Origin: an uncultured Actinomycetes bacterium | GTDB lineage: Bacteria; Actinomycetota; Thermoleophilia; RBG-16-64-13 | Direction: 5' to 3' | Length of the DNA stretch: 64,000 nt | NCBI GenBank assembly: GCA_963706025.1 | Contig: CAVPLM010000005.1 | Span: 960,001-1,024,000 of the forward strand | Part shown: piece by piece, positions 2,609 through 59,060 of the stretch | Numbering within the stretch: position 1 is the first letter of the stretch | How the letters are laid out: every line of letters begins with the position of its first letter | Position numbers and translations under genes: made by a program | Notes under the pieces: model-generated | The model's database searches: none | What the model was told of the DNA's origin: nothing | What the model saw: only the letters and a program-made list of their open reading frames with translations

Positions 2609-2634
2609 GGCGCGCTCGCTATCCATTGGAAGAC

Positions 2635-12975: not shown

Positions 12976-12985
12976 CTATGACCTC

Positions 12986-14839: not shown

Positions 14840-14852
14840 GTCGGCTTCCGCT

Positions 14853-15344: not shown

Positions 15345-15488
15345 GGGCCGGCCCTTGCTGCGGCGGGCCGATCGCGGCCCCGGGCATGAGTGGCGCTCAC
15401 GCCACTGCCGGCAGCGTCCACCGCGCGGAGCCCGGTGGCGCCGTTGCCCGGTATGACCAGCTTCTGGCCCACCATTCTGACTATGTGC

Positions 15489-23607: not shown

Positions 23608-24016
23608 ATGCCCATGTGGACAGGCCGGCAGCTCCTGACCTCGTACAACAATGGAAAGGGCGGCGTTGTCTCTGTGCTCGCCGAGACCTCGATCGGCGTC
23701 ACGTTCGACGAACGCGGCGACCTGGGCGGCCTTGCGGGCTGCAACTCGTTCTGGGGAGCCTACACCACGGACGGCGACACGCTCTCGATCAGCTCCCTCG
23801 ATTCCACCAACCTGTCCTGCACGGAGCCGGCAGGCATAATGGAGCAGGAGGCGGCGTACCTGAGCGCGTTGCGCGACGCCGCCACGTTCAGATACCAGGG
23901 GGGACGCGCTCGAGCTGAGAGCGGCGGACGGGGCTCTCGTCGCCTCGTACGAAGCCTGGAAAGCACCTCCCGGCGGGCTGTTTCATGGTGGTTCCCCGCA
24001 ACCGACCTCGCCGTAG
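23608..24016 (+). pseudogene. META (HslJ-like) domain paralog, no signal peptide, frameshifted near 23900
   Basis: GLAGCNSF..ST..SC.EP.G.MEQE; the shifted frame reads TLELRAADG..SYEAW..PPGG like the downstream gene. Confidence 0.65.
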
Positions 24017-24114
24017 GTGGGTTGGGCCGGGTGAAGTGCTGTAATCTATGAAGTCACTTTTGGCCGTCGAAGGCGATGGGGGTAGACGGCCGATGAACGA
24101 TTGGGGGATCATCC

Positions 24115-24594
24115 ATGAACGGCAAACAGCTGTTGGCACTGCTCAGAGCAGCCGTCGTGCTGGGTGCTCTGTTCGCGGTCGTCTTCTCCTTGGGTTGTGC
24201 CTCCACTGAGCCGGAGTCCGGCGCCGCGCTGCCCGGCACTTCCTGGGTGCTGAGCTCCTACGGAGACGGGAACGGTGGGCTGGTCTCAGTGCTCGAGGAC
24301 ACCCGTGTCAGCATCGCCTTCTCCGATAACGGGGACCTGGCCGGCTTGGCCGGCTGCAACTCGTATTGGGGCACTTACGCCACCGAGGACGACGAGCTGT
24401 CGATCGAATCGCTTGATTCCACTTCCTTGTCCTGCACAGAGCCGGCGGGCGTCATGGAGCAGGAGAAGGCTTGCCTGCAGGCCTTGCGAGATGCCGCCAC
24501 TTTCGAGATCGAGGGGGACACGCTCGAGCTGCGATCGGACGACGGAAGCCTCCTTGCCTCGTACGACGCCTGGAACCTGCCGCCGGGTGGCTGA
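24115..24594 (+). CDS. META (HslJ-like) domain lipoprotein
   Basis: Lipobox SLGC; LPGTSWVL, GLAGCNSY, MEQE. Confidence 0.85.
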   Translation: MNGKQLLALLRAAVVLGALFAVVFSLGCASTEPESGAALPGTSWVLSSYGDGNGGLVSVLEDTRVSIAFSDNGDLAGLAGCNSYWGTYATEDDELSIESLDSTSLSCTEPAGVMEQEKACLQALRDAATFEIEGDTLELRSDDGSLLASYDAWNLPPGG

Positions 24595-24810: not shown

Positions 24811-25122
24811 CTAGCCCCCCGCGATCGGCGGGAATATCGCGACCTCGTCTCCGTCGTGGAGCGTGGCGCCGGCGCCACCCAAGAACGCGATGTTGTGACC
24901 GTTGAGCAAGACGAGGAACCCTTCCCTGATGCCTCCGGACTCGTCAAGGAGCCCATGTCTTTGCTCCGGAGTGGTGCAGAGTGCCTCGAGGAGCCGCCCT
25001 ATGTCCGCCGCTTGCCCAATGGCAACGCGGGACTCCTTCTGCCCGAAGAGGTACCTGAGCCCGGCGAACAGCCTGACCGTGACGCCGGTGTCGTGACTGT
25101 TCTCGCCCGCCTGCATGGTCAT
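24811..25122 (-). CDS. MoaD/ThiS ubiquitin-like sulfur carrier
   Basis: VRLFA..LLNG..DGDEVAIFPPIAGG. Confidence 0.88.
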   Translation of the reverse strand: MTMQAGENSHDTGVTVRLFAGLRYLFGQKESRVAIGQAADIGRLLEALCTTPEQRHGLLDESGGIREGFLVLLNGHNIAFLGGAGATLHDGDEVAIFPPIAGG

Positions 25123-26981: not shown

Positions 26982-27219
26982 GGTGTGAGTATAGCCGATA
27001 GGCTTGGTCGCTCCCGCCGGCAGTGGCCCCCCTCTGCCCACCCGGAGGCGAGGCAGGCACCGGCCCCCGGTCAGGCCGCGTCGGGGTGGACGGCACAAGA
27101 AACGCCCCGCGAGGGGCAGGATTCTTGCCCGGCCTTCCCGTAGCGTGATACGCTGAGATACACCCTTGCGAGCATGGCAAATCGATCCATGCCGCGCTAT
27201 TCGATGGGGGTATTATCCA

Positions 27220-29862
27220 ATGGCAAGAAAGAATCGAGCGGTCAGCGAGCAGCCCGTGACCGCCCAAGAAGATGTATGGATCCATACGTCTTGCGGAGGC
27301 TGCTACGCCCAGTGCGGGATCAAGGCTCACCGGGTCGACGGTTTGATCGTGGGCCTGGAAGGCAATCCCGAGACGCCCGCCGGCAGCGGCCGGATGTGCG
27401 CAAAAGGTACCGCCCAGCTGATGATGCTCTACGACCGGTATCGGGTGAATTATCCGGTCAAGAGGACCAACCCGGAAAAAGGGGTAGGGGTCGATCCCAA
27501 ATGGGAGCGCATCTCCTGGGACGAAGCCATGGAGACGATCATATCGAAGTTCAAGAACCAGAAGGACCCCAGGGGGACCTATTTCCAGGCCACCACGGTC
27601 CAGACCAGCGAGATCCGTTTTGCCGTTCCCGCCTTCATGCGCGCCTGGGGTTTCAAGAACTACTGGGTATCGGGGGGCGGCCTCTGGTGCGGCAACGGCG
27701 CTCACTTCATGAACGGGATCATGCACGCCGCCTGGTCGATCATCCCCGATTGGAACTACAACAAGTACACGATCTACTTCGGGTGCTCGAAGGGGCACGG
27801 AGCGGGGCATGCCGCCCTGCAGAGCGCCCAATGGGTGGCGGATGCGCGGGCCAGGGGGATGAAAGCGGTGGTGTTCGACCCCTTCCTCTCTACCCAGGCC
27901 TCGAAGGCGCACGAGTGGGTGCCCATCCGCGTCGGAACGGACGGGGCCGTTGCGCTGGGCATGATCAATGTCATCCTGAACGAGCTCGGCATCTGGGACG
28001 CCCACTACCTCAAGCTGAAGACGAACGCCCCCTACTTGATCCAGCCCGACCAGCACTACAAGAGAGATCCCGAGACCAACAAGCCGCTCATCTGGGATCC
28101 CACTGACGGCCGGGCGAAGACCTTCGACGATCCGTCGATCAAGGACTACGCCCTCGAGGGGACCTTCGAGGTCGAGGGCACGCCCTGCACGCCTGCGTTC
28201 CAGCTTCTGAAGGAGCACGTCAAGAAGAACTACCCCCTGGAAAAGGTGGAGAAGATCACCAGCGTACCGGTTTCCACCATCCGCCGGGTCGCCACCGAGT
28301 TCGCCGAGGCGGCCGAGATCGGCCGGACCATCACCATCGACGGCAAGGAGCTCCCGCTGAGGCCGGCGGCCGCCATCTTCTTCCGGGGAAGTCAGGGCCA
28401 CGTGAACTCGGGCTGGAACTGTCTGGAGATCGACCTGCTGAACCAGATCGTCGGAGCCGCCGACGTACCCGGAGGATCGATGGGCCACGGGCCGCCGGTC
28501 TCCTACGGTCATCCCGACACCGGCAAGCCTGAGACGATACCGTACCCCTGCCCTGACGGCCTCATGGTCGTCAAAGGTTGGGTCTACGATCACAAGCCGT
28601 ACCCGCTCAGGGAGCCGGCGCCTCCCAAGCGGCTCGACCTGCAGGACCTGTTCCCCTGCTCGGTCTACAACGCCTTCACCATCTGCTCACCAGAGTGGGA
28701 GAAGTACCGGAAGGACTTCAACATCGACTACGAGCCGGAGATCATGATCAACTTCGGTTCCAACTCGGTGATGACGATGGCCAACGCGCACGAGGTCACC
28801 GAGAACTTCCTCAAGAAGTTCGACTTCGTGCTGTCGTTCAACATCTTCCAGAACGAGTTCACCGAGGCCGTCGCCGACATCGTCCTTCCTGACGCCAGCT
28901 TCCTCGAACGGTACACACCATGCGTGACCTTCCCCTCGACGTTTTGCCATCCCACCGGGATGGACCACTGGGTGTGGCAGATCCGCCAGCCGGTCGTCGA
29001 GCCGCTCTACGAACGCCGCGACTTCAACGAGGTGATGCTGGAGATCGCCAAGCGGCTCGGTGTTCAGGAGAAGTACTTCCAGGCGATCAACGATCTCATC
29101 CCGGTGCGGTACGGCGGGGAGATGTCAGAAGAGTACAAGCTCGATCCAAGCAGCGACTACTCGTGGCAGGACATATCGGACCGGGTCCTCAAGGACAGGC
29201 TGGGACCGGAGAATGGGCTCGAAGCCCTCAAGAAGACCGGCCTCGTGAAATGGCCGACGAAGGTCGAGGAGATGTACTGGCGGTGGTTCACGCCCGTTCG
29301 AGTGCCCATCTACTTCGAGTTCTTCCTCGAAAGTGGGGAGAAGCTGGGGAATCTCCTGAAATCGTTCGGCCGGGAGGACATGGCCGACCTACGGTTCTAT
29401 ACGCCTTTGGCCGAGTGGTTCCCCTGCCCTTCGCACGAGGATGAGAACCCCGATTTCGACCTGTGGGCCTTCAGTTGGCGGCCTTCGTTCCACACTCAGT
29501 CCTCGACCCAGAACAACCCCTGGCTGGACGAGGTGTCGGTGAACGATCCCTTCGTCTACCTGATCCAGATCAACGCCGCGACAGGCAAGGAGAAGGGGCT
29601 CAAGGACGGGGACGTCGTATGGGTCGAGAACCCCGATGGAAAGCGGATCAAGGGTCCGGTGAAACTCGCCGAGGGAGTACACCCCGAGCAGTTGGGGATC
29701 GCCGGTTGCCACGGCCACTGGGCGCGAGGCACGCCCATCTCAAAGGGAAAAGGCCAGTTCTTCGACGATCTCATAAGCCCTGACGTCAAACACACCGACT
29801 CGCTCACCCAAGGGACGGACGCCTGCGTCAAGGTCAAGATCTACAAGGCCGAGGGGAGGTGA
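27220..29862 (+). CDS. Mo/W-bisPGD (DMSO reductase family) catalytic subunit without Tat signal
   Basis: CGGCYAQC..CAKG, RVNYPVKRTNP, ISWDEA, TDGAVALG, ADIVLPD. Confidence 0.9.
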   Translation: MARKNRAVSEQPVTAQEDVWIHTSCGGCYAQCGIKAHRVDGLIVGLEGNPETPAGSGRMCAKGTAQLMMLYDRYRVNYPVKRTNPEKGVGVDPKWERISWDEAMETIISKFKNQKDPRGTYFQATTVQTSEIRFAVPAFMRAWGFKNYWVSGGGLWCGNGAHFMNGIMHAAWSIIPDWNYNKYTIYFGCSKGHGAGHAALQSAQWVADARARGMKAVVFDPFLSTQASKAHEWVPIRVGTDGAVALGMINVILNELGIWDAHYLKLKTNAPYLIQPDQHYKRDPETNKPLIWDPTDGRAKTFDDPSIKDYALEGTFEVEGTPCTPAFQLLKEHVKKNYPLEKVEKITSVPVSTIRRVATEFAEAAEIGRTITIDGKELPLRPAAAIFFRGSQGHVNSGWNCLEIDLLNQIVGAADVPGGSMGHGPPVSYGHPDTGKPETIPYPCPDGLMVVKGWVYDHKPYPLREPAPPKRLDLQDLFPCSVYNAFTICSPEWEKYRKDFNIDYEPEIMINFGSNSVMTMANAHEVTENFLKKFDFVLSFNIFQNEFTEAVADIVLPDASFLERYTPCVTFPSTFCHPTGMDHWVWQIRQPVVEPLYERRDFNEVMLEIAKRLGVQEKYFQAINDLIPVRYGGEMSEEYKLDPSSDYSWQDISDRVLKDRLGPENGLEALKKTGLVKWPTKVEEMYWRWFTPVRVPIYFEFFLESGEKLGNLLKSFGREDMADLRFYTPLAEWFPCPSHEDENPDFDLWAFSWRPSFHTQSSTQNNPWLDEVSVNDPFVYLIQINAATGKEKGLKDGDVVWVENPDGKRIKGPVKLAEGVHPEQLGIAGCHGHWARGTPISKGKGQFFDDLISPDVKHTDSLTQGTDACVKVKIYKAEGR

Positions 29863-29867
29863 GCTGT

Positions 29868-30497
29868 ATGACGCGCTACGGTTTTGTGATCGATCTGAAG
29901 CGCTGCTACGGGTGCTATTCGTGCCAGGTGGCATGCAAAGCCGCGAACCACACCCCGCGAGGCATCGACTGGGCCCGGTGCGTCCCTGCCGAGACGGGAA
30001 CGTACCCGACCTCTCTCCGCCAGATGCTGCCGCTCGTCTGCCAGCAGTGCAGAGAGCCGGCCTGCAAAGAGGTGTGTCCCACGGGGGCGACGACCCAAGA
30101 CGAGAACGGGATCGTCCACGTGGACCCGAAGCTCTGCATGGGCTGCAAAGCCTGCATCATGGCCTGCCCCTACGGGGCACGGCAGACGGTGAGCGGTTGG
30201 CAGACCTACTTCCCCGATGCCGAGGGTGAGCTCGACCCATACGAAGCTCATGCCAAGAAGGAATGGGAGAAGAAGTACGGCTACGGTATGGCCACCAAGT
30301 GCGACTACTGCATGGATCGTGTGAACGAGGGGCGTCAGCCCGCTTGTGTGGAAACCTGCCCGGCAAAGGCTCGCTACTTCGGTGATCTCGACGACCCCGA
30401 AAGCGAGGTCTCGATACTCATCAGACGTGAGTATGGATTCCAGCTCAACCCCGAGTTCGGAACCGATCCAGCCTGCTACTACCTACCACCGAGGTGA
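29868..30497 (+). CDS. 4Fe-4S electron-transfer subunit (NrfC/DmsB-like)
   Basis: Four ferredoxin Cys motifs; PACVETCP..ARYFGD. Confidence 0.92.
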   Translation: MTRYGFVIDLKRCYGCYSCQVACKAANHTPRGIDWARCVPAETGTYPTSLRQMLPLVCQQCREPACKEVCPTGATTQDENGIVHVDPKLCMGCKACIMACPYGARQTVSGWQTYFPDAEGELDPYEAHAKKEWEKKYGYGMATKCDYCMDRVNEGRQPACVETCPAKARYFGDLDDPESEVSILIRREYGFQLNPEFGTDPACYYLPPR

Positions 30498-30501
30498 CGA
30501 G

Positions 30502-31416
30502 ATGCAGCTGAAAGCTCAAACCAAGTGGGGTTGGATGATCGCCGCGTATCTCTTTCTCGCGGGACTCGGCGGTGGCGCATACGTGACCGGTGTCGTTACC
30601 GATTTCTTGGGCGAGGATTGGAGCTCCCTCTCCAAGATCGGTGTCACTCTCGGATTCCCCTGTGTTTTCGTGGGAACGATGTTCCTTATCACCGACCTGG
30701 GGACACCGGCCAACTTCTGGCGGGCCTTCATGCGGCCCCGCACCTCCTGGGTGGCCAGGGGGACGATCATCATCATGACCTTCATGGTCATCAGCATCAT
30801 CCACCTTGGCCTCTGGGTCTGGCCGTTCCATGTGCTGGAAGATGCCGAGACCGCGCGTTACGTTCTCGGAGTGGTGGGCGCCGTCTTCGCCTTCGGGACC
30901 ATGATCTACACCGGGCTCCTCCTGGGGGCCAACCGGCCGATCGCCTTCTGGAGCACCGCGTTGGTGCCGGTCATGTTCCTCGTCTCCGCTTTATCGACAG
31001 GAGCGATGGCCGTCATCCTGGCCGGGACCATCGGGGGATTGGAGCACGCCGGGCCAATATCGAGGCTGGCACGGTTCGACATTATCTTGCTGGCCCTCGA
31101 GGTAGTGGTGATCACCATGTACCTGCAGGCAACTCACCGGGTGCCCGAGTCGCGCGAATCGGCCAGACTGGTGCTGACCGGCAACGTCGCCCCGCTCTTC
31201 TGGCTCGGGGTGGTCCTCTGTGGGCTGATCATCCCGCTCGTCCTCGAACTGGTAGGCGTGTACGCCTTGGAGGGATCCGGCGCGACGGCCGTTACCGCCG
31301 TCGCCGCGGTCAGCGGATTGTTCGGCGGTCTGTGCCTGCGGCAAGTCGTGCTGTCCGGCGGCGTCCAGGCCCCGTTGCGAGCCAGCCGGTTCGAATTCGG
31401 CCTGCCGATCGTCTGA
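30502..31416 (+). CDS. NrfD/PsrC-like membrane anchor
   Basis: WGWMIAAYLFLAG, DLG.P, SW..RG, YTG, W..P motifs. Confidence 0.9.
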   Translation: MQLKAQTKWGWMIAAYLFLAGLGGGAYVTGVVTDFLGEDWSSLSKIGVTLGFPCVFVGTMFLITDLGTPANFWRAFMRPRTSWVARGTIIIMTFMVISIIHLGLWVWPFHVLEDAETARYVLGVVGAVFAFGTMIYTGLLLGANRPIAFWSTALVPVMFLVSALSTGAMAVILAGTIGGLEHAGPISRLARFDIILLALEVVVITMYLQATHRVPESRESARLVLTGNVAPLFWLGVVLCGLIIPLVLELVGVYALEGSGATAVTAVAAVSGLFGGLCLRQVVLSGGVQAPLRASRFEFGLPIV

Positions 31417-31447: not shown

Positions 31448-31490
31448 TCGGGGGGGCCCTCCGGCAGGAGGGCCCCCCCGAGTCTTTCTT
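31448..31490 (+). terminator. Intrinsic terminator
   Basis: tcggggggg ccctcc-ggca-ggaggg cccccccga followed by tctttctt. Confidence 0.8.
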
Positions 31491-44304: not shown

Positions 44305-46575
44305 TCATGGAGTCGACCAGATCTTGTAGTTGTCGAAACCCAGTTGGAGCCCGCCCGAGGTGGTCGTTCCGCCTATGAATCCTAATCTGCCGGACGCAAG
44401 GGAAGCGCCCGTAAGCTCGCAAACATTCGTCCCGTTGACGTACATATTGACGGTGGCTCCCTTGGCCGTCACCTTCAGATGATTCCAGGCAGTGCCCTTG
44501 TTGATGGCGCTGGCCGGATTGTCCTGGACCTGGGTCAGAGAACTCCGACTCCCGCCGGCCACCCGCCACAATTGCCAGAAGCCCTCGCTGGAGACGACGA
44601 ACTGATACATGTCCTTGCCATCGGAGGATACCCTAAAGATGAGCCCGTAGAGCCCCTCCATTAGCGAGGGCAGAGAAAGGGCGTCAACTTCGACCGTGAA
44701 ATCGCTGTACGACTCGCCCAGCCAGGTCCAGGCGAGCCAATTGGGCTCGCTGATGGTGATGGTGTAGCGGGAGAGCGAAGTGTCGCACGCCAGTTGGTAG
44801 TTGCCGTCCCCGCCCTCCGACCACCCGCTGGCCCCAGTGGAAAAATCGTCGGAGAACAGCAGCTGAGGCTCCGACGGAGGCGGTCCGTTGCCCTCCAGGT
44901 TGTAGAGGTTCCACATGATCTGGGCCGATTCGCCCCGGCTGGCCTTGGCCTCGCAGCTCCATGAGGGGCCGACCCCGGCGACGCCGTCGAGCAGCCCGTT
45001 GAATTCGGCGACGCGCACGTTCTCGCCATGATAGGGATTCGAGTAGTAGTTAGTTAGCCCACCGCCGTTCCAGCCGGTGGGTGGAGTCTCGAGCGCCCCC
45101 TGTTTGAAGTTCTTGCCGGCACGCACCACCATGCTAATCACTTGCGCCCGGGTGATGTCCACGTACGGCGCGAAGGTGGTAGCCGTCTTGCCGTAGGTGA
45201 TCTGAAGGGCATAGGCCTTGCCTACATAGTCGTTCGGGTAGAGCTTGCCTGGGTCGTCGAGTTCGAGGTCCGTGAAGGGCTTGCTCGCGTCCTGCCAGTC
45301 GCTTTCGGAAACGGTGATCTTCAGCACACCCAGGATCATCTTGGCGAACTGGGCCCGGAGGATGTTGTTCTGGGGCCGAAACTCCTTTCCCCCGGGGACA
45401 TCATATCCGTCGATGACCCCGGCGTGACTCAGGCCCTCGATCGCGGTGTAGTAGGTGTGGCTCGGAGGCACGTCGAGGAAGCACTGGTGGCCGGGAGGCT
45501 GCGTGCCGCCGTAGCTCACTATCGTCCCCGCGTCACCGACAGCCCAGCCGCGCGGCGTGCCGCCCGTCTGGCTGGCAGGAAGGAAGAAGACCTGGTTCAG
45601 CTTCGCGGAGGTACCGGAGGACTGTGAAGACCAGGCGCCACCGCCGCTGGTGGTCTGCATGAGGGAGCCGTCGGCCAAGATGCCCCAGCCTTGAGTGGAA
45701 CTGGCGAATGCGAACCGCGCCGGCCACTGCGGAGAAGAGACGCTCACCACCTGCCAGGTGACCCCGCCGTTGGTGGTGTGGAGGAGCCGATTGACGCTCG
45801 TGAGGAGGTTGGTCATCCTCACCCAGCCCTCGAGCGGACTGGTGAAGAAGAGTGAATCGAAGGTGAGGATGCCCTCCTCCACCGGCAGGTTAGTGAATTC
45901 CGCCCTACTCCAGAGGGAGCCGCCGTTGGTCGTATAGAAGTGGACGTTCCCGGAGCCCGTGATGCAACCGTTGTTGGCGTCGCGAAAATGGACCCCGTTG
46001 ATGGTCTGCACGGTGGAGAGCACCCCACCTACATCCGTCTTGTCCTGCCGCTCCCAGATGCCGCCGCCGTTCGTCGTGCGGACGACGGTCCCCCAGGTGC
46101 CGCCCAACCAGATGTGGGTGGCATCGACGATGGCCACGTCGAGGTAACCGCCTGTGATGGCTGGCACAGCCACTGGGTTCCAGGTACCGCCGCCGTTGGA
46201 AGTCTTGAGCACGACTGGAGCGTTCGAGGCGTCGCGACCCAGGACCCAGCCGTTGTTCTGGTCGACGAACCTGACCTTGAACAGGCCGGCCGTACCCCCG
46301 GAAGTCTGCTTCGTCCAGGTTTGGCCACCATTGGTGGTACTGAGAATGACGCCGCCGTCGCCCGCCACCCAGCCGTAATTGCGATCGAGGAAGAAGACTG
46401 CGTTGAGCTTCGCGGTGGTGCCGGAGGCCTGAGCAGCCCAGCCGACGTCTGCCGCCAGAGCCACGCCCGGAGAGAAGGCACCGGAGGTCGCGAATGCGCC
46501 CACCGCCAACAGCAGCATGGTGGCAAAGGCGACCGTTGGCAGGTACTTGACCAAACGTCGCCGTGCGGCCAACAT
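44305..46575 (-). CDS. Surface protein: YCF48-like beta-propeller + SLH repeats + DUF1080-like domain
   Basis: Signal peptide, repeated T.NGG.TW Asp-boxes, FLDVP..F.P..LRAQ/TRAQ SLH motifs, C-terminal WNHLKV..G.LG..FDN. Confidence 0.8.
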   Translation of the reverse strand: MLAARRRLVKYLPTVAFATMLLLAVGAFATSGAFSPGVALAADVGWAAQASGTTAKLNAVFFLDRNYGWVAGDGGVILSTTNGGQTWTKQTSGGTAGLFKVRFVDQNNGWVLGRDASNAPVVLKTSNGGGTWNPVAVPAITGGYLDVAIVDATHIWLGGTWGTVVRTTNGGGIWERQDKTDVGGVLSTVQTINGVHFRDANNGCITGSGNVHFYTTNGGSLWSRAEFTNLPVEEGILTFDSLFFTSPLEGWVRMTNLLTSVNRLLHTTNGGVTWQVVSVSSPQWPARFAFASSTQGWGILADGSLMQTTSGGGAWSSQSSGTSAKLNQVFFLPASQTGGTPRGWAVGDAGTIVSYGGTQPPGHQCFLDVPPSHTYYTAIEGLSHAGVIDGYDVPGGKEFRPQNNILRAQFAKMILGVLKITVSESDWQDASKPFTDLELDDPGKLYPNDYVGKAYALQITYGKTATTFAPYVDITRAQVISMVVRAGKNFKQGALETPPTGWNGGGLTNYYSNPYHGENVRVAEFNGLLDGVAGVGPSWSCEAKASRGESAQIMWNLYNLEGNGPPPSEPQLLFSDDFSTGASGWSEGGDGNYQLACDTSLSRYTITISEPNWLAWTWLGESYSDFTVEVDALSLPSLMEGLYGLIFRVSSDGKDMYQFVVSSEGFWQLWRVAGGSRSSLTQVQDNPASAINKGTAWNHLKVTAKGATVNMYVNGTNVCELTGASLASGRLGFIGGTTTSGGLQLGFDNYKIWSTP

Positions 46576-46684
46576 CTGACCCCCTTTCCGCTTTGTGAGA
46601 CCCAGGGATGGAGAGGCGGCGGATGCTGGGGATTCCGTCCCCGGAGCCCCGGCGCCCGCCGCCTCAGGCGGTAGCCTCACCCGA

Positions 46685-47511
46685 TTACCTTTCTACGAAG
46701 ATGACCCCCAGATTGAGGCTGTCGACGAGGTCGACCTGCTGCGCGACCGGCTTGTAGCCGGGCGCGCTCACGACCAGGTCGTAGCGACCGGGCGCCAGGC
46801 CGTCGAAGATGAAGTCGCCGTAGTTGTTCGTTGCGGTGTCGCCAATCTTGGTGCCCTCCGCCTGCAGGATGACGATCGCACCCTCGGCGCAGTCGTCGGT
46901 GTCTTTGTAGGCCACGGTTCCGCCCAGAAAGGCCTTGGTCCAACGGTGGAGGTTCTTGTACCAGACGCGCGGGTTGGTCCCCCAGTCCGCCTGATACGCC
47001 TCCAGACCCTCCGCACTGGCCTTCACCACCATCTCGTCCTCATCACCCAGGACGAGTTTGAGCGCCCCGGTGGGGCACACCTGGGTGCAGCGGGTCTCGG
47101 TCCACCCGCCGTCGATCAGGTGTGCGCAACCGGTGCACTTCTGGGGAAGGCCGGCCTCCTCGTTCCAGTAGATGACGTCGTAGGGGCAACTGCCAACGAT
47201 CTGCTTCTGACCCTTGGCTTTCTTGGGGTCGATGATCACGAGGCCGTCTTTGCGCTTGTGCACGGCGCCGTCGGGAGTGAGGCAGGGAGCATCGTCGCAA
47301 TGCTGGCAGGGGACGGGCAGGTAAGCCACCTGCACCATCGGGAACTGGCCTCTCTCCTTGCGCTCGATGTCCATCCAGCGCTGGCCGGACCAGGGCTGGG
47401 CGACCGAGTAGCCCTTGAAGTCGTTCCCTACATACTCGTCCTTGCAGGCCAGGAAGCAGTTGTTGCAGTCGTGGCAGAGGGCGACGTCGACACCATGTTC
47501 CACTTTTTCAT
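46685..47511 (-). CDS. bthL: Pyrogallol transhydroxylase small subunit-like Fe-S protein (frameshift near 47490)
   Basis: MKKWNMV../CHDCNNCFLACKDE, CPY..WNEE, C-terminal TNNYGDF domain. Confidence 0.8.
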
Positions 47512-50100
47512 CTGCCGTCCTCCCACTTCTCGACTTGGATCAAACAGGAGTTGTTGGACATGCCCCCGGAGTAGGGAGTGATCAGCCGGATGTTGGTGAG
47601 GATGTTCACACAACCGCCGCGGTCCGGCGACTCACCGGGCGTGCCCAGGGGATCGTATTCCGCGCACGACTCGTACGAGTGGACGGTGCCGGACGGCACC
47701 CGCTCGGTGACCTGCGCCGCCAGGATGACCGAACCCCGGTCGTTGAAGGCCCGGATCAAGTCACCGCTCCTGAGGCCTCGAGCCGAAGCATCCTGAGTGT
47801 TGAGGCGCATGACCCAGTAGTAGTGGCCGTCCACCAACACCCGGTGGTCCTTGACCTCGTTCATCCAACTCTCTTTGCCGTCGCCCATGGTGTGGAAGCT
47901 GAAGCGCGGGTGCGGGGAGACCATCTGCAGGGGATACTTGCCGTAGAGCTCGGTGGTGTGGTGTCCCTCCCAGCTGGGGATGAACTGCGGGCCCATGGCC
48001 GGCCGCTCGGGATCGATGTTGCCCCCCGCCTCGAAGCGGGTGAGGCTCGACGAGACGAACTCGATCTTGCCGGATGCGGTCTGTAGCCCTTTGAGGCCGA
48101 CCGTGTCGGCTGGGAAAGCCCAGTCGGGCGTGTCGCGGACCCGGTCCTCGGCGAACCAGCGCATGGCCGGAGTGGACTTGTGGTCTTTGGGGAACGGGAC
48201 GACGACGTAGCCCTTCTTCTCGAAGTCTTTCCAGGAGATCAACTTGGGTAGGTCGGTGGCCTGGAAGTATTCCTTGACCCACTGATACTCGTCCTTGCCG
48301 CCCATGGTGAACAGGTGCCCGATCCCCAGTCGCTCGCACACAGCCGCGAAGATGTCGTAGTCGGACTTGCTCTCGCCCAGCGGCTCGATGCACTTCATCT
48401 GCAGGCTGATGACCCGGTTGTTGGTCTGGGTGTAGACGTCGGGGATATAGCCTGAGCAGCTGGCGAACTCGCTGATGTCCCAGCGCTCGAAGTTGGTGCA
48501 GGCCGGCAGGACGATATCGGCGAACTTGGCTTCCCCCTCCCACCAGATGGGCTGGCTCACCGCGAACTCCAGCTTCGGATTCCGATAGGCCTTCACGTAG
48601 CGGTTGGTCTGGGTCATGGTCCCGAAGAAGGACCCTCCGTAGCGCCAGTACATGTGGATGAACGGGTAGCCCGGAGCCGGATACTCGTATTTCTGCAGCT
48701 GGCTCTCGATGGAGGAACCGCAGAACCCCTTGCCCCTGAACTCCATCTTCTCGTTCTGGAGCGCTTCGGGGATGCGGAGGCGCGATATGATCTGACCCTC
48801 GGTGGAGTCGTGCGTGCACCGGGTGGCTCCCTGCCTGCCCGCGAACATGTGATAGACCCAGCGGAAGCCGGCGGCCGACTTGTCTACATCACCGGAGATG
48901 CCACCCTCGGCATAGCCGGGGAAGAGGAAGGACTCGTCGGCCGGGCAGCCCTGCGAGGTCCCCCATATGTTGCTCCCCGGCTTGCCCATGCCCTGCATCG
49001 CAGCCAGGGCGATCATGGTGCGGGCCCACTCGTTGCCGGTGGCAGAACGGCAGGCGCCGCCCCAGCCTCCGAGGCTGCCGGCGGCCAGCATCGTCTTCTT
49101 GGCGCCCCACTCCCGAGCCAACGCCCGGATGTCGCGGGCCGGGATCCTCGATTCACCCTCGGCCCATTCGGGGGTCTTGGGCACGCCGTCGCTCTCGCCC
49201 AGGACGTACGCTTTCCATTGATCGAAGCCCACGGTGCGATCGGCCACATATTCCTTGTCGTACGTGCCCTCGGTCAGCCACGTGTAGGCGATGCCGAGAC
49301 CCAGGGCCACGTCGGTGCCGAGCCGCGGCGAGAACCACTTGTCGGCGATAAGACCGGCGGTGTGGTTGTAGTAGGGGTCGATGAAGATCATCTTGACGCC
49401 CAGCTCCTTGAGCCAGAAGCGGCGGACGGTGCTCTCGAAGGCCGAGTAGATGCCGCCCCCGGTGCTCTCGGGGTCGGCCGACCAGAACACGATCATCTCG
49501 GTGTGCTTGAGGGCATCTTCCAGGAGGTCGTACTGCTCGGGTATGCCCAGGCGGTGGCTGTAGCCCCACATGTGCATGCCCCCCCAGTGCCAGCCTTCCC
49601 AGCTGTCCGGGTTGTGGGCGGCCTGGACCATCCCCACCAGGTTCGAGAAACGCAAGTAGGCGCTGTGGCGATAGCCCACGTTGCCCCACAGGTGGTGGGA
49701 CCCACAGGTGGTGAGGATCGCCCCCGGTCCAAACGTTCGCTTCACCCGGTTGATCTCGTTGCAGACGATACCCAGGGCCTCGTCCCAGCTGATGGGCTCG
49801 TAGTCTGACTCGCCCCGCTTTTCGCAGTTGCGCTCGCCGTTGGGGTCGAAATCCACCCGTTTGAGCGGGGTGAGCACCCGCTTGGGCGAGTAGATCATCG
49901 ACTTGTGACCGGCGGTGTAGGGCATCACGGTGGTGCGCCGGGGCGGGGCGAAGGTACGCCCTCTGCGCCTCGATCGACCAGGTGGGGTTGTCGGACTCCT
50001 CGAGGTCCATGGGCGTGATCCGCAAGATCTTCCCATCTCTCACATCGACGAAGACCGGCCCCCCGGTGGTGCTGTTTGTCATCCTCTGTACTTTGCCCAT
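47508..50100 (-). CDS. athL: Pyrogallol-phloroglucinol transhydroxylase large subunit-like Mo-bisPGD enzyme (frameshift near 49965)
   Basis: TNSTTGGP..RITP, SHHLWGNVGYRHS, NPDSWEGWHWG, GGWGGACR, FPGYAEGG; no Tat signal or FS0 cluster. Confidence 0.85.
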
Positions 50101-50212: not shown

Positions 50213-50245
50213 GGTGGCGGAGCCGGTTCCACCGGCTCCGCCACC
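50213..50245 (-). terminator. Perfect 15-bp stem hairpin after the substrate-binding gene
   Basis: ggtggcggagccggt-tcc-accggctccgccacc. Confidence 0.7.
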
Positions 50246-52019: not shown

Positions 52020-53219
52020 ATGGCCAAAGCATGTCCTACTCCTCGACCCTTCCGAGCGGTCGCCGGGACCGTCGTGTTCCTCACCCTGCTCTTCTTCGTC
52101 ACCTTTCTCGGCCGGCTCATCTTCTCGCCGCTTCTCCCTGCGATAGGAGAGGACATCTCCCTCACCTCTGGCCAGGCCGGGTCGATCTTCTTCGTTGGTT
52201 CCTTCGGCCTGCTGGCCGGCTCGATGGTGGCCGGGTTGCTATCTTCACGGCTGAACCACCGGCGGACGATGCTGTTATCCGTTTTCGGGATCGCAGCCGT
52301 TCTCGCGGTTCTCTTTTTCGTCGACTCGGTCTGGGGACTACGTGGAGCGATGTTCGTCCTGGCGTTCTTCGCCGGGATCCACCTGCCTTCGTCGGTGGCG
52401 ACCATCACAGCCACGGTGCGAGAGCAGGACTGGCCTCGAGCTCTCTCCGTCCAGCAACTCGGCCCCCCGCTGGGGCTGATTGCTGCTCCGCTGGTGGCCG
52501 TCGGACTGTCGCACTGGTTCAGTTGGCAGACCATCTTCGTGTGGGTGGCAGGCCTCGCCTTGGTGCTCAATCTGGGTTTCTTGTTCTTCTTTGGGGGGAT
52601 CGGCTCGTTCCCCGGTGACCCCCCCAGCCCCAGGTTCATCGGGCCTCTGTCCCGCACTCGGTCGTTCTGGCTGATGATCTTCCTGTTTGCCCTGGGCATG
52701 GGGTCTCAGGTGGGGGTCTACACGATGCTGCCCTTGTATCTCTCTGAAGAGCGGGGGATGACGGTCTCCTCGGCCAACACCCTGCTGGGCTTGGCCAACA
52801 TCGCCCCCCTGGTGATGGTGTTCGTCTCGGGCTATATCACCGCACGGATCGGACCGAAGCGCACCATGGCGCTCTTCCTCTTCCTCACCGGGATCGCGGC
52901 GATCCTGGTAGGGAGCCTCTCCGGTCCCGGGCTCATAGTGGCCATCTTCTTCATGCCGGCTTTCGCGGTCGGCTTCTTCCCACCGGCCTTCGCCGCCCTG
53001 TCGCGCATCGTACAGCCCACGCTGCGCAGCTTGGCCGCGGCGCTGGGCCCATCGATGGCCTTCATCCTCGGCGGGGGTCTGCTCCCGCAGGCTCTCGGCT
53101 ACATGGGGCAGGCCTACAGCTTCAGTCTCGGCATCGTCATCACAGGGGTGGTCGTCGCGGTCGGTTCGTGCGCGGCCTTCTTCGTCCACCTCTTGAAGGA
53201 ATTGGAACCCGGCTGCTAG
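52020..53219 (+). CDS. MFS transporter
   Basis: About 12 TM segments; GR.IFSPLLP. Confidence 0.85.
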   Translation: MAKACPTPRPFRAVAGTVVFLTLLFFVTFLGRLIFSPLLPAIGEDISLTSGQAGSIFFVGSFGLLAGSMVAGLLSSRLNHRRTMLLSVFGIAAVLAVLFFVDSVWGLRGAMFVLAFFAGIHLPSSVATITATVREQDWPRALSVQQLGPPLGLIAAPLVAVGLSHWFSWQTIFVWVAGLALVLNLGFLFFFGGIGSFPGDPPSPRFIGPLSRTRSFWLMIFLFALGMGSQVGVYTMLPLYLSEERGMTVSSANTLLGLANIAPLVMVFVSGYITARIGPKRTMALFLFLTGIAAILVGSLSGPGLIVAIFFMPAFAVGFFPPAFAALSRIVQPTLRSLAAALGPSMAFILGGGLLPQALGYMGQAYSFSLGIVITGVVVAVGSCAAFFVHLLKELEPGC

Positions 53220-53319
53220 ACCACCCTCTGGAGCCGGCTCGGCAGCCGGCGGCGGTGGTCGCGCCCTCTCGTGGTAGATTGACTCCCGAACGCGAGACGA
53301 CAATAGCTATCGAGGAGAG

Positions 53320-53817
53320 ATGACATGGCCCAGATCGCACAAGAGCGGGCGAAGGCCGACTGCTCTGGCCCGTTTCGCCGCCACTGGTCCGGAGCACATC
53401 AACTGCGCGCAAGCCGTCGTCGCTTTCGCGCTCGACATGATGGGGGAAGACCCTGATCTGGTGGTGACCGCCGGCTATTTCGGAGGAGGGATAGCGGGGA
53501 TGGGAGAGGCCTGCGGCGCGGTCACGGGAGCGGCCCTGGCTCTGGGCCTGCGCGACTACTGCAGGAAGGGAATCGTCGTCGATGGCCCGAACCCGACTCC
53601 CGATCTCCTGAAAGGGCTGATGCGCGACTTCGCCGGTCAGTTTGGATCTCGGCGGTGTGGAGAACTCACCGGCCACGATCTGAGCACGCCCGAGGGATTC
53701 GAGTTGTTCCATAAGAGCGAGATCCGCGACAGGTGCCCGCTCTACGTCGGCTGGGTCTGCGACCGCTTGGCACCCCTTCTGGTCGAGCAGGAAACGCCCG
53801 CTCCACCCAGCGAGTAA
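53320..53817 (+). CDS. C_GCAxxG_C_C family putative redox protein
   Basis: NCAQAV, FGGG, CGAVTG and two further Cys. Confidence 0.88.
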   Translation: MTWPRSHKSGRRPTALARFAATGPEHINCAQAVVAFALDMMGEDPDLVVTAGYFGGGIAGMGEACGAVTGAALALGLRDYCRKGIVVDGPNPTPDLLKGLMRDFAGQFGSRRCGELTGHDLSTPEGFELFHKSEIRDRCPLYVGWVCDRLAPLLVEQETPAPPSE

Positions 53818-53859
53818 TCGGGTAGGGGCCGGGCTCACCCCGGCACCTCCCACAACGCC

Positions 53860-54055
53860 GGAGGCCGCCCCGATAACGGGACGGCCTCCACAAGCTCTTA
53901 TGAAGCGCTGCGACCCCGAAGGCGCCGTCGGAAGGCGTCAGTCGGGAATCCAACGACTAAAGGCGAGCGCCACCTCCGGTCCAATGGCCGCTGCGCTTAC
54001 TAGGCATGCTGTCTATTGGGACCACCTCCTTTCCACGCTTGATGAGATTCTAGCA
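53860..54055 (-). ncRNA. Putative small RNA or small-peptide transcription unit
   Basis: TGcTAGAAT extended -10, GAAAGGAGGTGGTCC, 16-codon ORF, 13-bp terminal hairpin. Confidence 0.45.
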
Positions 54056-54131
54056 AACGGGACCGCGGCCTACCAGAGGTGTGTGGGCGGCGGGAGCCAA
54101 GTGACAGACGACGGCCCATACGCCGCGTACG

Positions 54132-55103
54132 CTATCCTCGACCGGGCGATGACTTTCGCGGCCAATCATCTTTCAGAAGGCGCGACAGAGCTCGATCGGC
54201 CAGGATACGGCCCTTGGTCTGGCAGCCGGGACAGTAGTCACATTCGTTTTCCGCGTACACGATGCGCTGGACGGCTGCTCCGCAGTCAGGGCATGGAGAG
54301 CCGAAGCGTCCGTGCACCGCCATCTCGGGGCGAAAGGCCGTGACCTTTTCGGGAAAGCCTTCCCGAGCCTCGGCCCGCAGCCGTTCGGTCCATTCCTCCA
54401 GCACCTCCACGGCTGCCGCATGGAGTCCGGCCACCTCTGCCGCCTCCAAGGCCTTGGTCTGCTTGAGGGGAGACATTCGAGCCCGATGAAGGATCTCGTC
54501 CGAATAGGCGTTGCCGATCCCGCTGATCGTGTGAGGATCGGTAAGGGCCCGCTTGACAGTCCGATTCTCACGCCGAAGGGCCGCCTCGAACTCCTCCAGA
54601 CTCGAGCCGATGATCTCCAGCCCGCCGGGGTCGAGATCCGCGAGAGCATCCCGGCCCTTGACCAGGCGAAGAGAGGCCCGTCGTTTCTTGCCGGCCTCGG
54701 TGAGGATCAAGCTGCCGGTGGCGAAGTCGAAGGCGGCCAGCCCCGAGCCCTTGGGAACCGGAGATCGCGCCTCTTTCCAGTGCAACCGGCCGGCGATCAT
54801 CAGGTGCAGCACGAGAAAGAGGGGGACGTCATGTTTGGGGTCTGCGGGCGCGGGGGCTACGGCGACGGTAGCCGTGGAGTCGGGCACGACGGTCGCCTGG
54901 CCGGGCGCGGCCGTCACCTCGAAGACGATGCGCTTGCCCAACCGTTCGATCGCCGCGACACGGCCCCCGGCCACGGCCTCCAGCGGAGGGTCGACCGTGC
55001 GCAGCAAGAAAGGATTGGCCAGTCGGATCCCCAGCAGAGTCTCGCCCAGGATCCGAGGCCTCAGGGCTTCGATGTAGGCTTCGATGTCGGGTATCTCGGG
55101 CAT
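54132..55103 (-). CDS. Fpg/Nei family DNA glycosylase
   Basis: N-terminal PE.P, R.GK, HLMIAG, GIGNAYSDEIL, CxxC..CxxCQ zinc finger. Confidence 0.92.
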   Translation of the reverse strand: MPEIPDIEAYIEALRPRILGETLLGIRLANPFLLRTVDPPLEAVAGGRVAAIERLGKRIVFEVTAAPGQATVVPDSTATVAVAPAPADPKHDVPLFLVLHLMIAGRLHWKEARSPVPKGSGLAAFDFATGSLILTEAGKKRRASLRLVKGRDALADLDPGGLEIIGSSLEEFEAALRRENRTVKRALTDPHTISGIGNAYSDEILHRARMSPLKQTKALEAAEVAGLHAAAVEVLEEWTERLRAEAREGFPEKVTAFRPEMAVHGRFGSPCPDCGAAVQRIVYAENECDYCPGCQTKGRILADRALSRLLKDDWPRKSSPGRG

Positions 55104-55153
55104 CGGAGATCGCGACCAGTATAGCCGCGCACCCGAGGCTGTATCCTGGCTGC

Positions 55154-56437
55154 ATGAAGCGATGCCTGACCACGTGGTGCATCATCGCCTGCCTTTGCGG
55201 CGCGGTGATGACGAGTTGCGACGGTCTCTCGGACGCCGGCCCGTCTGCCGCGGAGACACAGGCGAGCACCGCCCCGACGCCTGCGGCGACGGAGGCGGCG
55301 GCCGCGGCCACCTCGACCACCACGCTCCCGGCCACGACGACGACGTTGCCGTCTCCCGCGGAAGTGCTGTTGGCCGATATGACTCTGCGCCAGAAGGCGG
55401 CCCAGGTCCTGCTGCTCGCCATCGACGGGACCACCCTCTCCACGAGCACCCAGGAGCTGCTGGCCGAGGGTCCCCCGGGCGGGATCCTACTCCTGGGACG
55501 TAACGTGCAAGGAGCAGAGCAGACGCGCAGATTCACAGAAGATCTGCAGAAGGCAGCCGCGTCTGGCGGGTCGGGGATCGGGCTGTTCATCGCCGTGGAC
55601 CAAGAGGGTGGGCTCGTCCAACGTATCCACGAAGGCGTACCCGAAGTCCCACGGGCTCGAAAGCTCGGAGAGACCTCCTCCCCGGAGGAGGCAGCTCTCC
55701 TGGCGGTGGAGACGGCTCAAGGGCTCCTCGCTCTCGGGGTGAACATGAACCTGGCGCCCGTGGCGGATGTGGTCGCCGACCAGGGTTCGTTCCTGTACCA
55801 AAGGAGTTACGGAGGAGAGGTGGGACTCGTCTCCGGATTCGTCACCGCGGTCGCCGAAGCCTACGCCGACAACGGATTGATCTCGGTGGTGAAGCACTTC
55901 CCCGGTCACGGCAGCGCCTCCGGCAACACCCACGGGGAGGCGGTCATCTCGAACGCCACCCAGGCCGAGTTCGAGACCGTCCACCTGCCGCCGTTCCGGG
56001 CCGCCATCGACGCCGGAGCCGAGGGGGTCATGATGGCTCACATCATCGCCACCGCTTACGATGCCGAGGAACCCGCGTCTCGATCCGCCGCCGTCATCGA
56101 AGGGTTGCTGCGTGACGAGTTGGGCTTCACCGGCCTCGCGATATCGGACGACCTGGAGATGGCCGCAGCGACCGCGTCGGCAGCGGCCGGTTCGGGAGCC
56201 GAGGCCGAGGCAGGACAGGCGACTGCGCTCGGGAAGGCGGCGGTAGCCGCGCTCAACGCCGGCTGTGATCTCCTCATCTGCACTGGCACCCTTGCCCGGA
56301 ACTTGGAGTTGCTGGACGCCATCGTCGCCGCCGTCGAAACCAGCGCGGTGTCTTCGGCCAGGCTCGACGAAGCCGTTTTGAGGGTGCTCGAGCTCAAACT
56401 CCGCCACGAGATAGTGGGACCCCCGCTCGCGCCCTGA
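55154..56437 (+). CDS. nagZ: GH3 beta-N-acetylhexosaminidase, secreted/lipoprotein
   Basis: DQEGG, NLAPVAD, KHFPGHG, SDDLEM. Confidence 0.85.
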   Translation: MKRCLTTWCIIACLCGAVMTSCDGLSDAGPSAAETQASTAPTPAATEAAAAATSTTTLPATTTTLPSPAEVLLADMTLRQKAAQVLLLAIDGTTLSTSTQELLAEGPPGGILLLGRNVQGAEQTRRFTEDLQKAAASGGSGIGLFIAVDQEGGLVQRIHEGVPEVPRARKLGETSSPEEAALLAVETAQGLLALGVNMNLAPVADVVADQGSFLYQRSYGGEVGLVSGFVTAVAEAYADNGLISVVKHFPGHGSASGNTHGEAVISNATQAEFETVHLPPFRAAIDAGAEGVMMAHIIATAYDAEEPASRSAAVIEGLLRDELGFTGLAISDDLEMAAATASAAAGSGAEAEAGQATALGKAAVAALNAGCDLLICTGTLARNLELLDAIVAAVETSAVSSARLDEAVLRVLELKLRHEIVGPPLAP

Positions 56438-57160: not shown

Positions 57161-57202
57161 GGCGGCGGGGGCGCGCCCGTATGGGCGCGCCCCCGCCGTT
57201 TC
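57161..57202. terminator. Strong hairpin between convergent genes
   Basis: ggcggcgggggcgcgccc-gtat-gggcgcgcccccgccgtt. Confidence 0.75.
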
Positions 57203-57291: not shown

Positions 57292-58893
57292 TCAACTATC
57301 GAGTATCTTCTCGGCCTCTTCTTTGAAGGCGTCCATCACGTACTGGATGCCCGATACCTTGGCCGCATCTTCGGTAAGGGCGATCACGTCGCTCCGGTTC
57401 ATAGTGTCGAGGCGGAAGCTACGGGCGCCGGCCATGAACTGGGTCAGACCGGTGCGCAGTTTGTCCACGAAGGTGTAGATGGCTACGGCGCCCAGCGGGA
57501 TCTTGTCCATCCTGGCACCGTATTTGTCCTTGAGAGTCGAGTGTGTAACGAAGATCTCCTCAGGCGTCTGGCCATACTTCTTGACCGGCGTCGGCAGTTC
57601 GTTCCACAGGCCCTGACGACTTCCATCGCCCACCACGCCCTCGATGTTGCTGCCCACGAAACCGGGGATCATGAGGGCCCGGCCCATGCACACCGCTTTG
57701 AAGTAGGGGGCCCCCATGGCCAGCACCTTGAAGATGTGGTCCTCGGTAGAGAAACCGCCGGCCATGGCCAGGTCGGGAGTCCACTCGCCCCGGGTGGCCA
57801 GGCGTTTCGCGCACTCATAGGCCATGGCCTGCAGGTAGAAGGTGGGCACGCCCCACTCCTCCATCATGCGCCACGGGCTCATGCCGGTGCCGCCACCGGA
57901 GCCATCGATGGTGACCAGGTCGACCCGCGCCTTGGACGACCACTTGATAGCCCGCGCCAGCTCCGGATATCCGTAAGCTCCGGTCTTGAGTGTGACCCGT
58001 TTCACTCCCAGGCTCCGGCGCAGTTGCTCGACCGAGCGCAGGAACTGCTCCTCGTCGATGAAACCCAGCCGGGAATGACGTTCGAACTCCTTGATCCCTC
58101 CGCTCTCGAAGGCCCTGCGCACCGCCGGGAGGCTCGGATTGGGAGTGATGATGTAGCCGCGTTTCTGCAACTCGATCGCGCGGTCCAGATCGCGGATCTT
58201 GATCTCGCCACCGATGCACTTGGCTCCCTGGCCCCACTTGAGCTCGATGGTCTCCACTCCGAGCTTCTCGACCACGTATTCAGCCACGCCGAAAACGGTG
58301 TCTTCCACGTTGAGCTGGACGATGATGTCACCGAAATCCTCTTGCCACTGCTTGTAGATCTTGATCCGCCGCTCCATCTCGGGCGACCGCTTGATTCGAC
58401 CGTCTTTGTAGAATTCGGCCGCCGGATCAATACCACAGACGTTCTCGCCTACTACCAGGGAAATGCCTGAGATAGCCGCACCGATGGCGAACGTCTCCCA
58501 GTACTTCCGGGCAACGTCGGTCGAGCCGAGCGCACCGGTGAAGACAGGCATGCGCATGCGCACCGGGTGCATGTGACCGTAGACGGCGGTCGTGTCGACC
58601 ACGGGGAAGATCGCCTTGTTAGGGTTGGCTTCGTCGATAGCCTTTGCCCCCATCGCGAAGCCGAGGATATTGAGATGCGAGTAATCCACGGGGAACTGCT
58701 TGTCCCCACCGGCGGTCATCTCGCCGAAGGGACCCGGGTACACCACTTCGCGCCCGCGGAAGGACGACCTGAACACGTCGCAGTTGCCCTGACAGTCGGC
58801 CATGCAACGCGTGCAAACCCCGGAACTCGCCACGTCGCGCGAGCGGTTCCTGGTGTCGAGCGCCTCACTGGATCCGGTGTGTGAGAAGTTCAT
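57292..58893 (-). CDS. Stand-alone FMN-binding glutamate synthase family protein
   Basis: GALGST, ELKWGQGAKCIGGE, LKTG, DGSGGGTG, CMGRA. Confidence 0.88.
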   Translation of the reverse strand: MNFSHTGSSEALDTRNRSRDVASSGVCTRCMADCQGNCDVFRSSFRGREVVYPGPFGEMTAGGDKQFPVDYSHLNILGFAMGAKAIDEANPNKAIFPVVDTTAVYGHMHPVRMRMPVFTGALGSTDVARKYWETFAIGAAISGISLVVGENVCGIDPAAEFYKDGRIKRSPEMERRIKIYKQWQEDFGDIIVQLNVEDTVFGVAEYVVEKLGVETIELKWGQGAKCIGGEIKIRDLDRAIELQKRGYIITPNPSLPAVRRAFESGGIKEFERHSRLGFIDEEQFLRSVEQLRRSLGVKRVTLKTGAYGYPELARAIKWSSKARVDLVTIDGSGGGTGMSPWRMMEEWGVPTFYLQAMAYECAKRLATRGEWTPDLAMAGGFSTEDHIFKVLAMGAPYFKAVCMGRALMIPGFVGSNIEGVVGDGSRQGLWNELPTPVKKYGQTPEEIFVTHSTLKDKYGARMDKIPLGAVAIYTFVDKLRTGLTQFMAGARSFRLDTMNRSDVIALTEDAAKVSGIQYVMDAFKEEAEKILDS

Positions 58894-59060
58894 TCGGCTA
58901 GACCTCCTGCCTGAGTTGCCACCCTGCCGGCACATGCCGCCCTCTGCCGGTACGAACCTGCCGCGTACAAGCAAGGCGGAAAGATTCTATTCTAGTGGCT
59001 GACTAATCATGCACAATCGCCAACTGTACAAAGACTGAGGCCATTTCCCTGGTCAAAAGT

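Follow-up and report, generated by a model that had tools for sequence, protein, structure and literature searches.

The window, which is the whole stretch of 64,000 nt that was analysed, contains a 314-bp intergenic gap (53818-54131) bordered by the stop codons of two convergent genes. The element considered here lies on the minus strand inside this gap. The features of the locus and its two flanking genes are as follows.

53320-53817, plus strand: C_GCAxxG_C_C family protein, the convergent flank (Pfam PF09719, E = 7e-20)
54132-55103, minus strand: Fpg/Nei-type DNA glycosylase (fpg), the upstream flank (Pfam H2TH and Fapy_DNA_glyco)
54055-54047, minus strand: extended -10 box TGCTAGAAT, read from the sequence
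54038-54041, minus strand: predicted transcription start, at about A54040 (6-7 nt past the -10 box; in the CC2171 alignment, model position 1 falls at 54041)
54019-54034, minus strand: hyper-extended Shine-Dalgarno (SD) sequence G-GAAAGGAGGTGGTCC, defined by pairing with the 16S tail (GAAAGGAGGTGGTCC itself occupies 54033-54019)
54014-54016, minus strand: AUA, a speculative near-cognate start candidate, from position and frame
53957-54007, minus strand: 16-codon small ORF (sORF) encoding MPSKRSGHWTGGGARL, with its stop (ATG 54007-54005, TAG 53959-53957)
53970-53977, minus strand: second SD-like motif GGAGGTGG, within the sORF and inside the long helix (sequence and fold)
53890-54009, minus strand: long irregular helix, the predicted body of the RNA
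53860-53889, minus strand: 13-bp G+C-rich hairpin, a likely terminator (fold; aligned to the terminator of CC2171)
53824-53850, minus strand: second hairpin past the terminator, bearing a third GGAGGTG at 53850-53844 (sequence, and a two-hairpin alignment on the plus strand)

The preliminary description had placed an extended -10 box, a 15-nt complement to the 16S rRNA 3´ end, a short ORF, a second SD-like motif and a closing hairpin on the minus strand of this gap, and all of them are present at the coordinates listed above. Its further observations also held: the 15 pairs with the canonical 16S tail include one G-U wobble, the ATG is unusually far from the SD core, and no large gene can use the hyper-extended SD because the flanking genes are convergent and the gap lies between their stops. 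No second copy of the gap was seen elsewhere in the window, so the element is neither a repeat nor a mobile element. None of eight ORFs of the gap was present in the protein collection by exact look-up, which indicates that no annotator has called a gene there. A Pfam search (E up to 1) of six ORFs from the gap, 22-147 aa long, returned no family, and a tRNA/tmRNA scan gave no match. By its sequence signals, the element looks like a stand-alone RNA gene of ~180 nt that would be transcribed from ~54040 to ~53860 on the minus strand.

Relatives of the locus were sought through its upstream flank. The Fpg protein was used as a query for bacterial genome contigs, and 80 loci were listed, which do not include the window's own genome; the best identity among these matches was 61%, and they represent many phyla. 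The sequence AAGGAGGTGRTCC was present in 0 of the 80 listed loci, and similarity to the gap in these loci did not go beyond chance matches of 12-18 nt. Likewise, the gap gave no match to plasmids in a BLASTN search in distant mode with E up to 0.01. Closer relatives of the flanking proteins occur in protein clusters, in which Fpg groups with two sequences at 95-96% identity and the C_GCAxxG protein with two at 82-90%. Among the matches listed, relatives of the Fpg/Nei-type protein at 52-61% identity were found in metagenome-assembled genomes (MAGs) labelled as Acidobacteriota, Gemmatimonadota, Planctomycetota, Myxococcota, Pseudomonadota and Actinomycetota; this protein is a poor taxonomic marker that may be horizontally mobile. 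Five of the 120 GlpK relatives listed carry a taxon label, namely four Thermoleophilia MAGs (63-76% identity) and one labelled 'bacterium' (78%).

The remainder of the window was surveyed for other features. Anaerobe-type redox genes are dense at 12211-17851, 25119-31416 and 44305-50036, with most matches below curated cut-offs. This set comprises two aldehyde:ferredoxin oxidoreductase-like ORFs, three molybdopterin oxidoreductase units with FeS and NrfD-like partners, and HoxE/NuoF/HoxU-like subunits (HoxEFU/NuoEF-like genes). MtaA-like genes are also found in the window, and the gene content as a whole points to an anaerobe. Two imperfect palindromes (23922-23975 and 24540-24585) with a common core, CCTCGTACGA / TCGTACGA, are located within the adjacent ORFs 23506-24051 and 24115-24594, which have no NCBIfam match and may be paralogous. 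An 828-aa ORF on the minus strand (1421-3904) contains a region resembling ADP-ribosyl-hydrolases (DraG/Tri1-like, residues ~495-659) that scores well below curated cut-offs; the other parts of this ORF have no assignment.

Complement to the 16S rRNA tail

The pairing of GAAAGGAGGTGGTCC was computed against the canonical 16S tail, as the host's own 16S gene lies outside the window. The 15 pairs consist of 11 Watson-Crick pairs, one G-U pair and three further Watson-Crick pairs. A 16th pair, which would be a second and terminal G-U, is possible only if the 16S tail carries an extra 3´ U. With at most one mismatch to the perfect 15-mer allowed, the window contains one match against 0.01 expected, and any match at all was obtained in one of 100 shuffles. 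By our estimate, the same test scaled to a 4-Mb genome gives ~0.3-0.6 chance matches, and the case for the element therefore depends on the conjunction of its features. When G-U pairs were allowed at every position, runs of at least 15 were reached in three of 60 Markov simulations. This lax measure is uninformative in G-rich DNA, and the strict measure alone is meaningful. With no more than one G-U allowed, complements in the 80 unrelated bacterial loci (613,518 bp) reached a maximum length of 11 nt. The 15-nt complement in the gap is not a product of chance; the finding is real and non-random.

The predicted duplex of GAAAGGAGGTGGTCC with the canonical tail has an energy of -27.8 kcal/mol, compared with -28.4 kcal/mol for the perfect complement and -8.7 kcal/mol for GGAGG. 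For the upstream 22 nt of 46 ORF starts, the best duplex reached -15.1 kcal/mol and the median was -8.5 kcal/mol. A 28-nt stretch around the element's site gave -28.8 kcal/mol. The duplex at -27.8 kcal/mol has about twice the strength of the best of the 46 gene-start regions. Ordinary GGAGG-type sites were found at several of the ORF starts, which indicates that the organism uses normal SD pairing. In the folded transcript, the first SD has a mean unpaired probability of ~0.6; that of the second SD-like motif GGAGGTGG, which pairs with GCGCCUUCGG, is 0.13.

The heptamer GGAGGTG occurs 11 times in the window, and three of these copies lie within 186 nt on the strand of the element. A Monte Carlo test of this clustering, applied post hoc, gave p ~0.001. 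The third copy (53844-53850, minus strand) is 27 nt from the stop codon of the C_GCAxxG gene and may belong to the 3´ end of that convergent gene.

Predicted promoter, terminator and fold

The extended -10 motif TGNTANAAT was seen once in the window against 0.93 expected and is not significant alone. Its weight derives from its place rather than its count: the box precedes GAAAGGAGGTGGTCC on the same strand with a spacing of 13 nt, and the chance of finding TGNTANAAT 13 nt upstream, given the SD site, is ~3e-4 by our estimate. The complement to the 16S tail starts 7 nt after the predicted transcription start. No convincing -35 element was found for this box. A sigma-70 scan of 53000-55200 that requires a -35 element, and is blind to promoters that lack one, returned no promoter on either strand.

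The hexamer TAGAAT occurs six times in the window, and four of these copies, at three places, are in promoter-like intergenic positions: the element's own box, a site at 10080 on the plus strand, and an overlapping pair at 58984 and 58989 on the minus strand. The remaining two copies are found in an SD/ATG context and within a gene. The overlapping pair (58984-58994) precedes the TTG of ORF 57292-58974 by 10-15 nt, and GCTAGAAT at 10080-10085 is 23 nt upstream of an ATG at 10109. Both resemble -10 boxes with short leaders, as does the box of the element.

The predicted transcript of 184-192 nt folds with a z-score of -3.2, and one of 200 shuffles was as stable. Its 3´ end would be formed by the hairpin 53889-53860, whose 13 pairs (12 Watson-Crick and one G-U) enclose a UUAU loop. 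No U-tract follows this hairpin, and a terminator scan of 53000-55200 that requires a U-tract returned none. Four perfect G+C-rich hairpins of 14-16 bp with 3-4-nt loops are located at other gene 3´ ends in the window. They occupy 57163-57198, 31448-31481, 50213-50245 and 5545-5575; two of them lie between convergent genes, and two or three T residues follow the stem. As these other terminal hairpins carry weak T-tracts, the absence of a U-tract seems normal for this genome. The 13-bp hairpin is likely a terminator according to the predicted fold, and it may serve both convergent units.

The 5´ end of the RNA could adopt an alternative hairpin (54024-53978) that would mask the SD over its 3´ half, with the first 10 nt left free as a seed. 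When forced in the full transcript, this conformer lies 8.6 kcal/mol above the minimum free energy structure. The isolated 5´ fragment prefers the alternative hairpin, at -14.8 kcal/mol.

The same elements could be read as belonging to no gene of their own, the gap then being the 3´ untranslated regions of fpg and the C_GCAxxG gene with a shared terminator, and the motifs being either the 5´ relic of a lost gene or coincidence. Convergent genes would in any case be expected to have a terminator hairpin between them. No terminator-like structure was detected between the fpg stop and the -10 box (fold of 54140-54041, z = 0.02), and the missing -35 element, together with the unexceptional count of TGNTANAAT, is compatible with this reading. 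However, a 15-mer with an expectation of 0.01 and the sole extended -10 box 13 nt upstream of it are very unlikely to occur jointly by chance, and neither the three GGAGGTG copies within 186 nt nor a layout that fits a known RNA class end to end (see below) is accounted for. An ordinary gene start is also an unlikely source of such a relic, since no start in the window has an SD of half this strength. The relic was rejected as a candidate: the gap has no family match, and its SD is far stronger than that of any real gene start here. The reading as 3´ untranslated sequence appears unlikely as a whole.

Candidate start codons and comparison with known RNAs

The ATG of the sORF begins 17 nt from the GGAGG core and 11 nt past the complement, which is outside the usual spacing. 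No ATG, GTG or TTG is located at 4-13 nt from the core. The triplet AUA (54016-54014) lies 8 nt past GGAGG and 2 nt past the duplex; the ATG follows 9 nt later in the same frame. Reading from AUA gives 19 codons instead of 16, and both the AUA start and the 19-codon reading are speculative. In the folded transcript the AUG is part of a helix, with an unpaired probability of 0.42-0.49 over the three transcript ends tried. G or C occupies the third position in 9 of the 16 codons, compared with ~0.81 in genes (binomial P = 0.02); this composition looks non-coding and argues against strong coding selection. The 16-aa peptide MPSKRSGHWTGGGARL is polar and lacks a hydrophobic stretch. A 22-aa form of the sORF that starts with GTG is absent from the protein collection.

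The preliminary description had regarded a match to an already described Rfam family as grounds for giving up its reading. At gathering level, no match to Rfam was found in the whole window. A relaxed search of 551 nt with E up to 10 returned nine weak matches, the best of which was RF01867 (CC2171) at 27.9 bits against a gathering score of 75 (E = 4.8e-4). The matches to mir-3960, ftsZ-DE, P17, Atu_C3 and other families were driven by hairpins and were set aside; CC2171 alone is meaningful. At its low score, this match gives grounds against the preliminary reading in a weak sense at most. The alignment to CC2171 runs end to end, from model position 1 (54041) to 159 (53862). It covers the 5´ motif, with identity at 14 of 15 positions, the terminator, whose pairs are retained, and a short GC stretch; the central model positions are skipped. 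The CC2171 consensus consists of an 8-nt leader, then GAAAGGAGGUGAUCC, then AGUG, with a G+C-rich terminator at its end, and the element has the same motif at the same place. In contrast, the body of CC2171 is multi-helix and that of the element is predicted to be one long irregular helix; the host phyla also differ, CC2171 being a Caulobacter small RNA. With a score below the gathering score, the element is not a member of the CC2171 family. Expression of CC2171 has been confirmed by Northern blot in Methylorubrum and is also expressed in Caulobacter, without an assigned function in the available text of that report (bioRxiv 10.1101/2022.01.24.477521).

The closest functional parallel is provided by the rre small mRNAs, which, within the literature searched, are treated as a class in Hahn et al. 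2016 (PMC5711450) alone. As described in the available text, the small mRNA rreB of Bradyrhizobium measures 165 nt and is perfectly complementary to the 16S 3´ end over 17 nt; this complement ends on the G of a GTG start codon, which opens an sORF for 14 aa. The RNA is found in the ribosome pellet, co-sediments with 30S subunits and is weakly translated; removal of the start codon makes it more stable. Over-production of rreB left growth unaffected, and the authors note that ribosomes far outnumber the RNA. The sORF of rreR from Rhodobacterales has 18 codons, and the rreB and rreR peptides are conserved within their clades. Analogues with 16-17 nt of complementarity are reported there only from four alpha-proteobacterial orders (PMC5711450). 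The available text mentions neither Rfam nor CC2171; from the exact fit of the consensus to the rre description, we infer that CC2171 is the Caulobacter rre gene.

The element resembles these RNAs in most of its layout. Its length of ~180 nt compares with 165 nt for rreB, and rre, CC2171 and the element together span 159-180 nt. Its 16 codons fall in the range of rreB and rreR (14-18), and neither the rre genes, as described, nor the element are tied to a downstream gene. The rreB gene has its own promoter and terminator, and the predicted unit here has a -10 box and a 13-bp hairpin without a -35 element or U-tract. Several differences were also observed. The complement of the reported rre RNAs is 16-17 nt and perfect, whereas that of the element is 15-16 nt with one G-U, just short of the minimum of 16 nt that defines the rre RNAs. 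The rre GTG abuts the complement, whereas the element has no GTG there and its AUA is one nucleotide off the equivalent position. For rreB, a single-stranded 5´ part of the complement is described, with the remainder able to enter a hairpin, an arrangement that in the element corresponds to the alternative conformer. Binding to 30S subunits has been demonstrated for rreB (PMC5711450), and for the element it is predicted from duplex energy and accessibility. The rre hosts are alpha-proteobacterial; by single-gene evidence, the element's host resembles Thermoleophilia (Actinomycetota). In sequence terms, the element is not an rre member by any homology test but appears to have the working parts of rre and CC2171.

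A second parallel is the STAB-SD of the Bacillus thuringiensis cry3A mRNA, a non-initiating SD near the 5´ end that pairs with the 16S 3´ end, so that the bound 30S subunit blocks 5´-to-3´ decay by RNase J1 (PMC4113751, as excerpted, citing Agaisse and Lereclus 1996 and Mathy et al. 2007). The element has an SD-like motif near its predicted 5´ end with no canonical start in range, with the caveat of the AUA at 8 nt. STAB-SD, as described, is a 5´-untranslated-region element of a long mRNA in Bacillota, whereas the motif studied here heads a short orphan RNA and its complement is much longer. A third parallel concerns the AUA itself. In Staphylococcus aureus, AUA and AUU starts that go with very strong extended SDs yield ~10-30% of AUG output (PMC13009471, in the portion available). 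These sites combine a strong, start-proximal extended SD with a weak near-cognate start, which keeps output low, and the SD and candidate AUA start of the element would be similarly arranged. The S. aureus sites serve protein genes (infC, ccpN, citZ and cvfC1), and their duplexes exceed the canonical one by a few pairs, compared with 15-16 bp in the element.

These precedents bear on whether the locus is a genuine small-protein gene, in which the 16-aa peptide (19 aa from AUA) matters and the long SD is an unusually strong site or one that compensates for its start. An sORF length within the range of the clade-conserved rreB and rreR peptides, an in-frame AUA 8 nt past GGAGG, and the pairing of near-cognate starts with very strong SDs in S. 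aureus would all fit such a gene, to the extent of the text available for both reports. The placement of the ATG outside the usual spacing, its partial burial in a helix, the low GC3 and the lack of any family match argue against it, and a selected peptide is judged improbable.

The strand assignment was considered in the same way. On the plus strand, the three GGAGGTG copies read CACCTCC within 186 nt, and an RNA carrying them might mimic the 16S anti-SD and repress mRNAs by pairing with their SDs. The hairpins are strand-symmetric, and the weak two-hairpin match to ftsZ-DE (E = 0.18) is on the plus strand. However, no promoter-like site was found on that strand in the scan that requires a -35 element, two of the three motifs lie past the hairpins that would end a transcript coming from the C_GCAxxG gene and the third is in a stem, and the RNA would run antisense into fpg without an end. 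The -10 box, the position of the 5´ motif and the terminator agree only on the minus strand, which makes function of the plus strand very improbable. A type I toxin-antitoxin locus or a Csr/Rsm-type protein sponge, to which the small orphan unit with its short ORF and several GGA motifs resembling CsrA sites might point, is hardly credible: the 16-aa peptide is polar with no membrane-spanning stretch, no antisense promoter was found in a simple scan that is blind to promoters without a -35 element, no toxin-antitoxin RNA or Csr/Rsm family was matched in Rfam at E up to 10, and CsrA is not known to be typical of Actinomycetota.

Proposed role and significance

The best reading of the element, by analogy with the RNAs above, is an rre-like small RNA that would bind 30S subunits and be translated weakly or not at all, in a phylum new to such RNAs and with an altered start arrangement. 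This reading has moderate confidence. The suggestion in the preliminary description that the gap holds an unannotated small RNA or small-peptide gene binding 30S gains support from the anatomy that the element appears to share with CC2171 and with rreB as described in PMC5711450. Its related idea of a ribosome-sequestering RNA is retained in part: 30S binding is predicted by the same analogy, whereas sequestering is weakened, and simple titration of ribosomes is unlikely as a function because rreB over-production, in the text available, had no effect on growth. The type I toxin-like locus that it also raised is not supported, given the polar peptide and the lack of a promoter-like site on the opposite strand in the simple scan.

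As an rre-like RNA, the element would work as follows. Transcription would begin from the extended -10 promoter, and the complement of 15-16 nt to the single-stranded 16S tail would follow 7 nt into the RNA. This complement, predicted to be largely unpaired, would catch free 30S subunits far more tightly than ordinary ribosome-binding sites do. Since no canonical start lies in the initiation window and the near-cognate AUA alone is well placed, the bound 30S subunit would be mostly unproductive, with little or no translation of the sORF of 16-19 codons. The analogy with rreB and STAB-SD suggests that this subunit may keep the RNA at ribosomes and guard its 5´ end against 5´-end-dependent decay. 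The long helix and the 13-bp hairpin would close the unit. The alternative 5´ hairpin may leave the first 10 nt of the SD as a seed for pairing, as proposed for rreB in the available text.

If the element is not conserved, it would be a curiosity of one metagenome-assembled genome. A simple search rule for further such RNAs would follow from its layout: intergenic stretches of at least 15 nt that are complementary to the tail, start no more than ~10 nt from a promoter and have a terminator downstream within 200 nt. A wider implication, offered tentatively, is that small RNAs that clamp the 16S tail are not confined to alpha-proteobacteria, and that they arose independently in Actinomycetota or spread there. 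If this is true, a dedicated short RNA kept on free 30S subunits would be a general device, which might for example monitor or adjust how many idle subunits are available, or bring a micropeptide to the ribosome. The rre and CC2171 RNAs are conserved, expressed and bound to 30S subunits, yet have no known function. The element would then be an independent example from a distant phylum in which the architecture is kept and the start-codon arrangement is changed, which would suggest that tight binding of the 16S tail, rather than the peptide, is what is selected.
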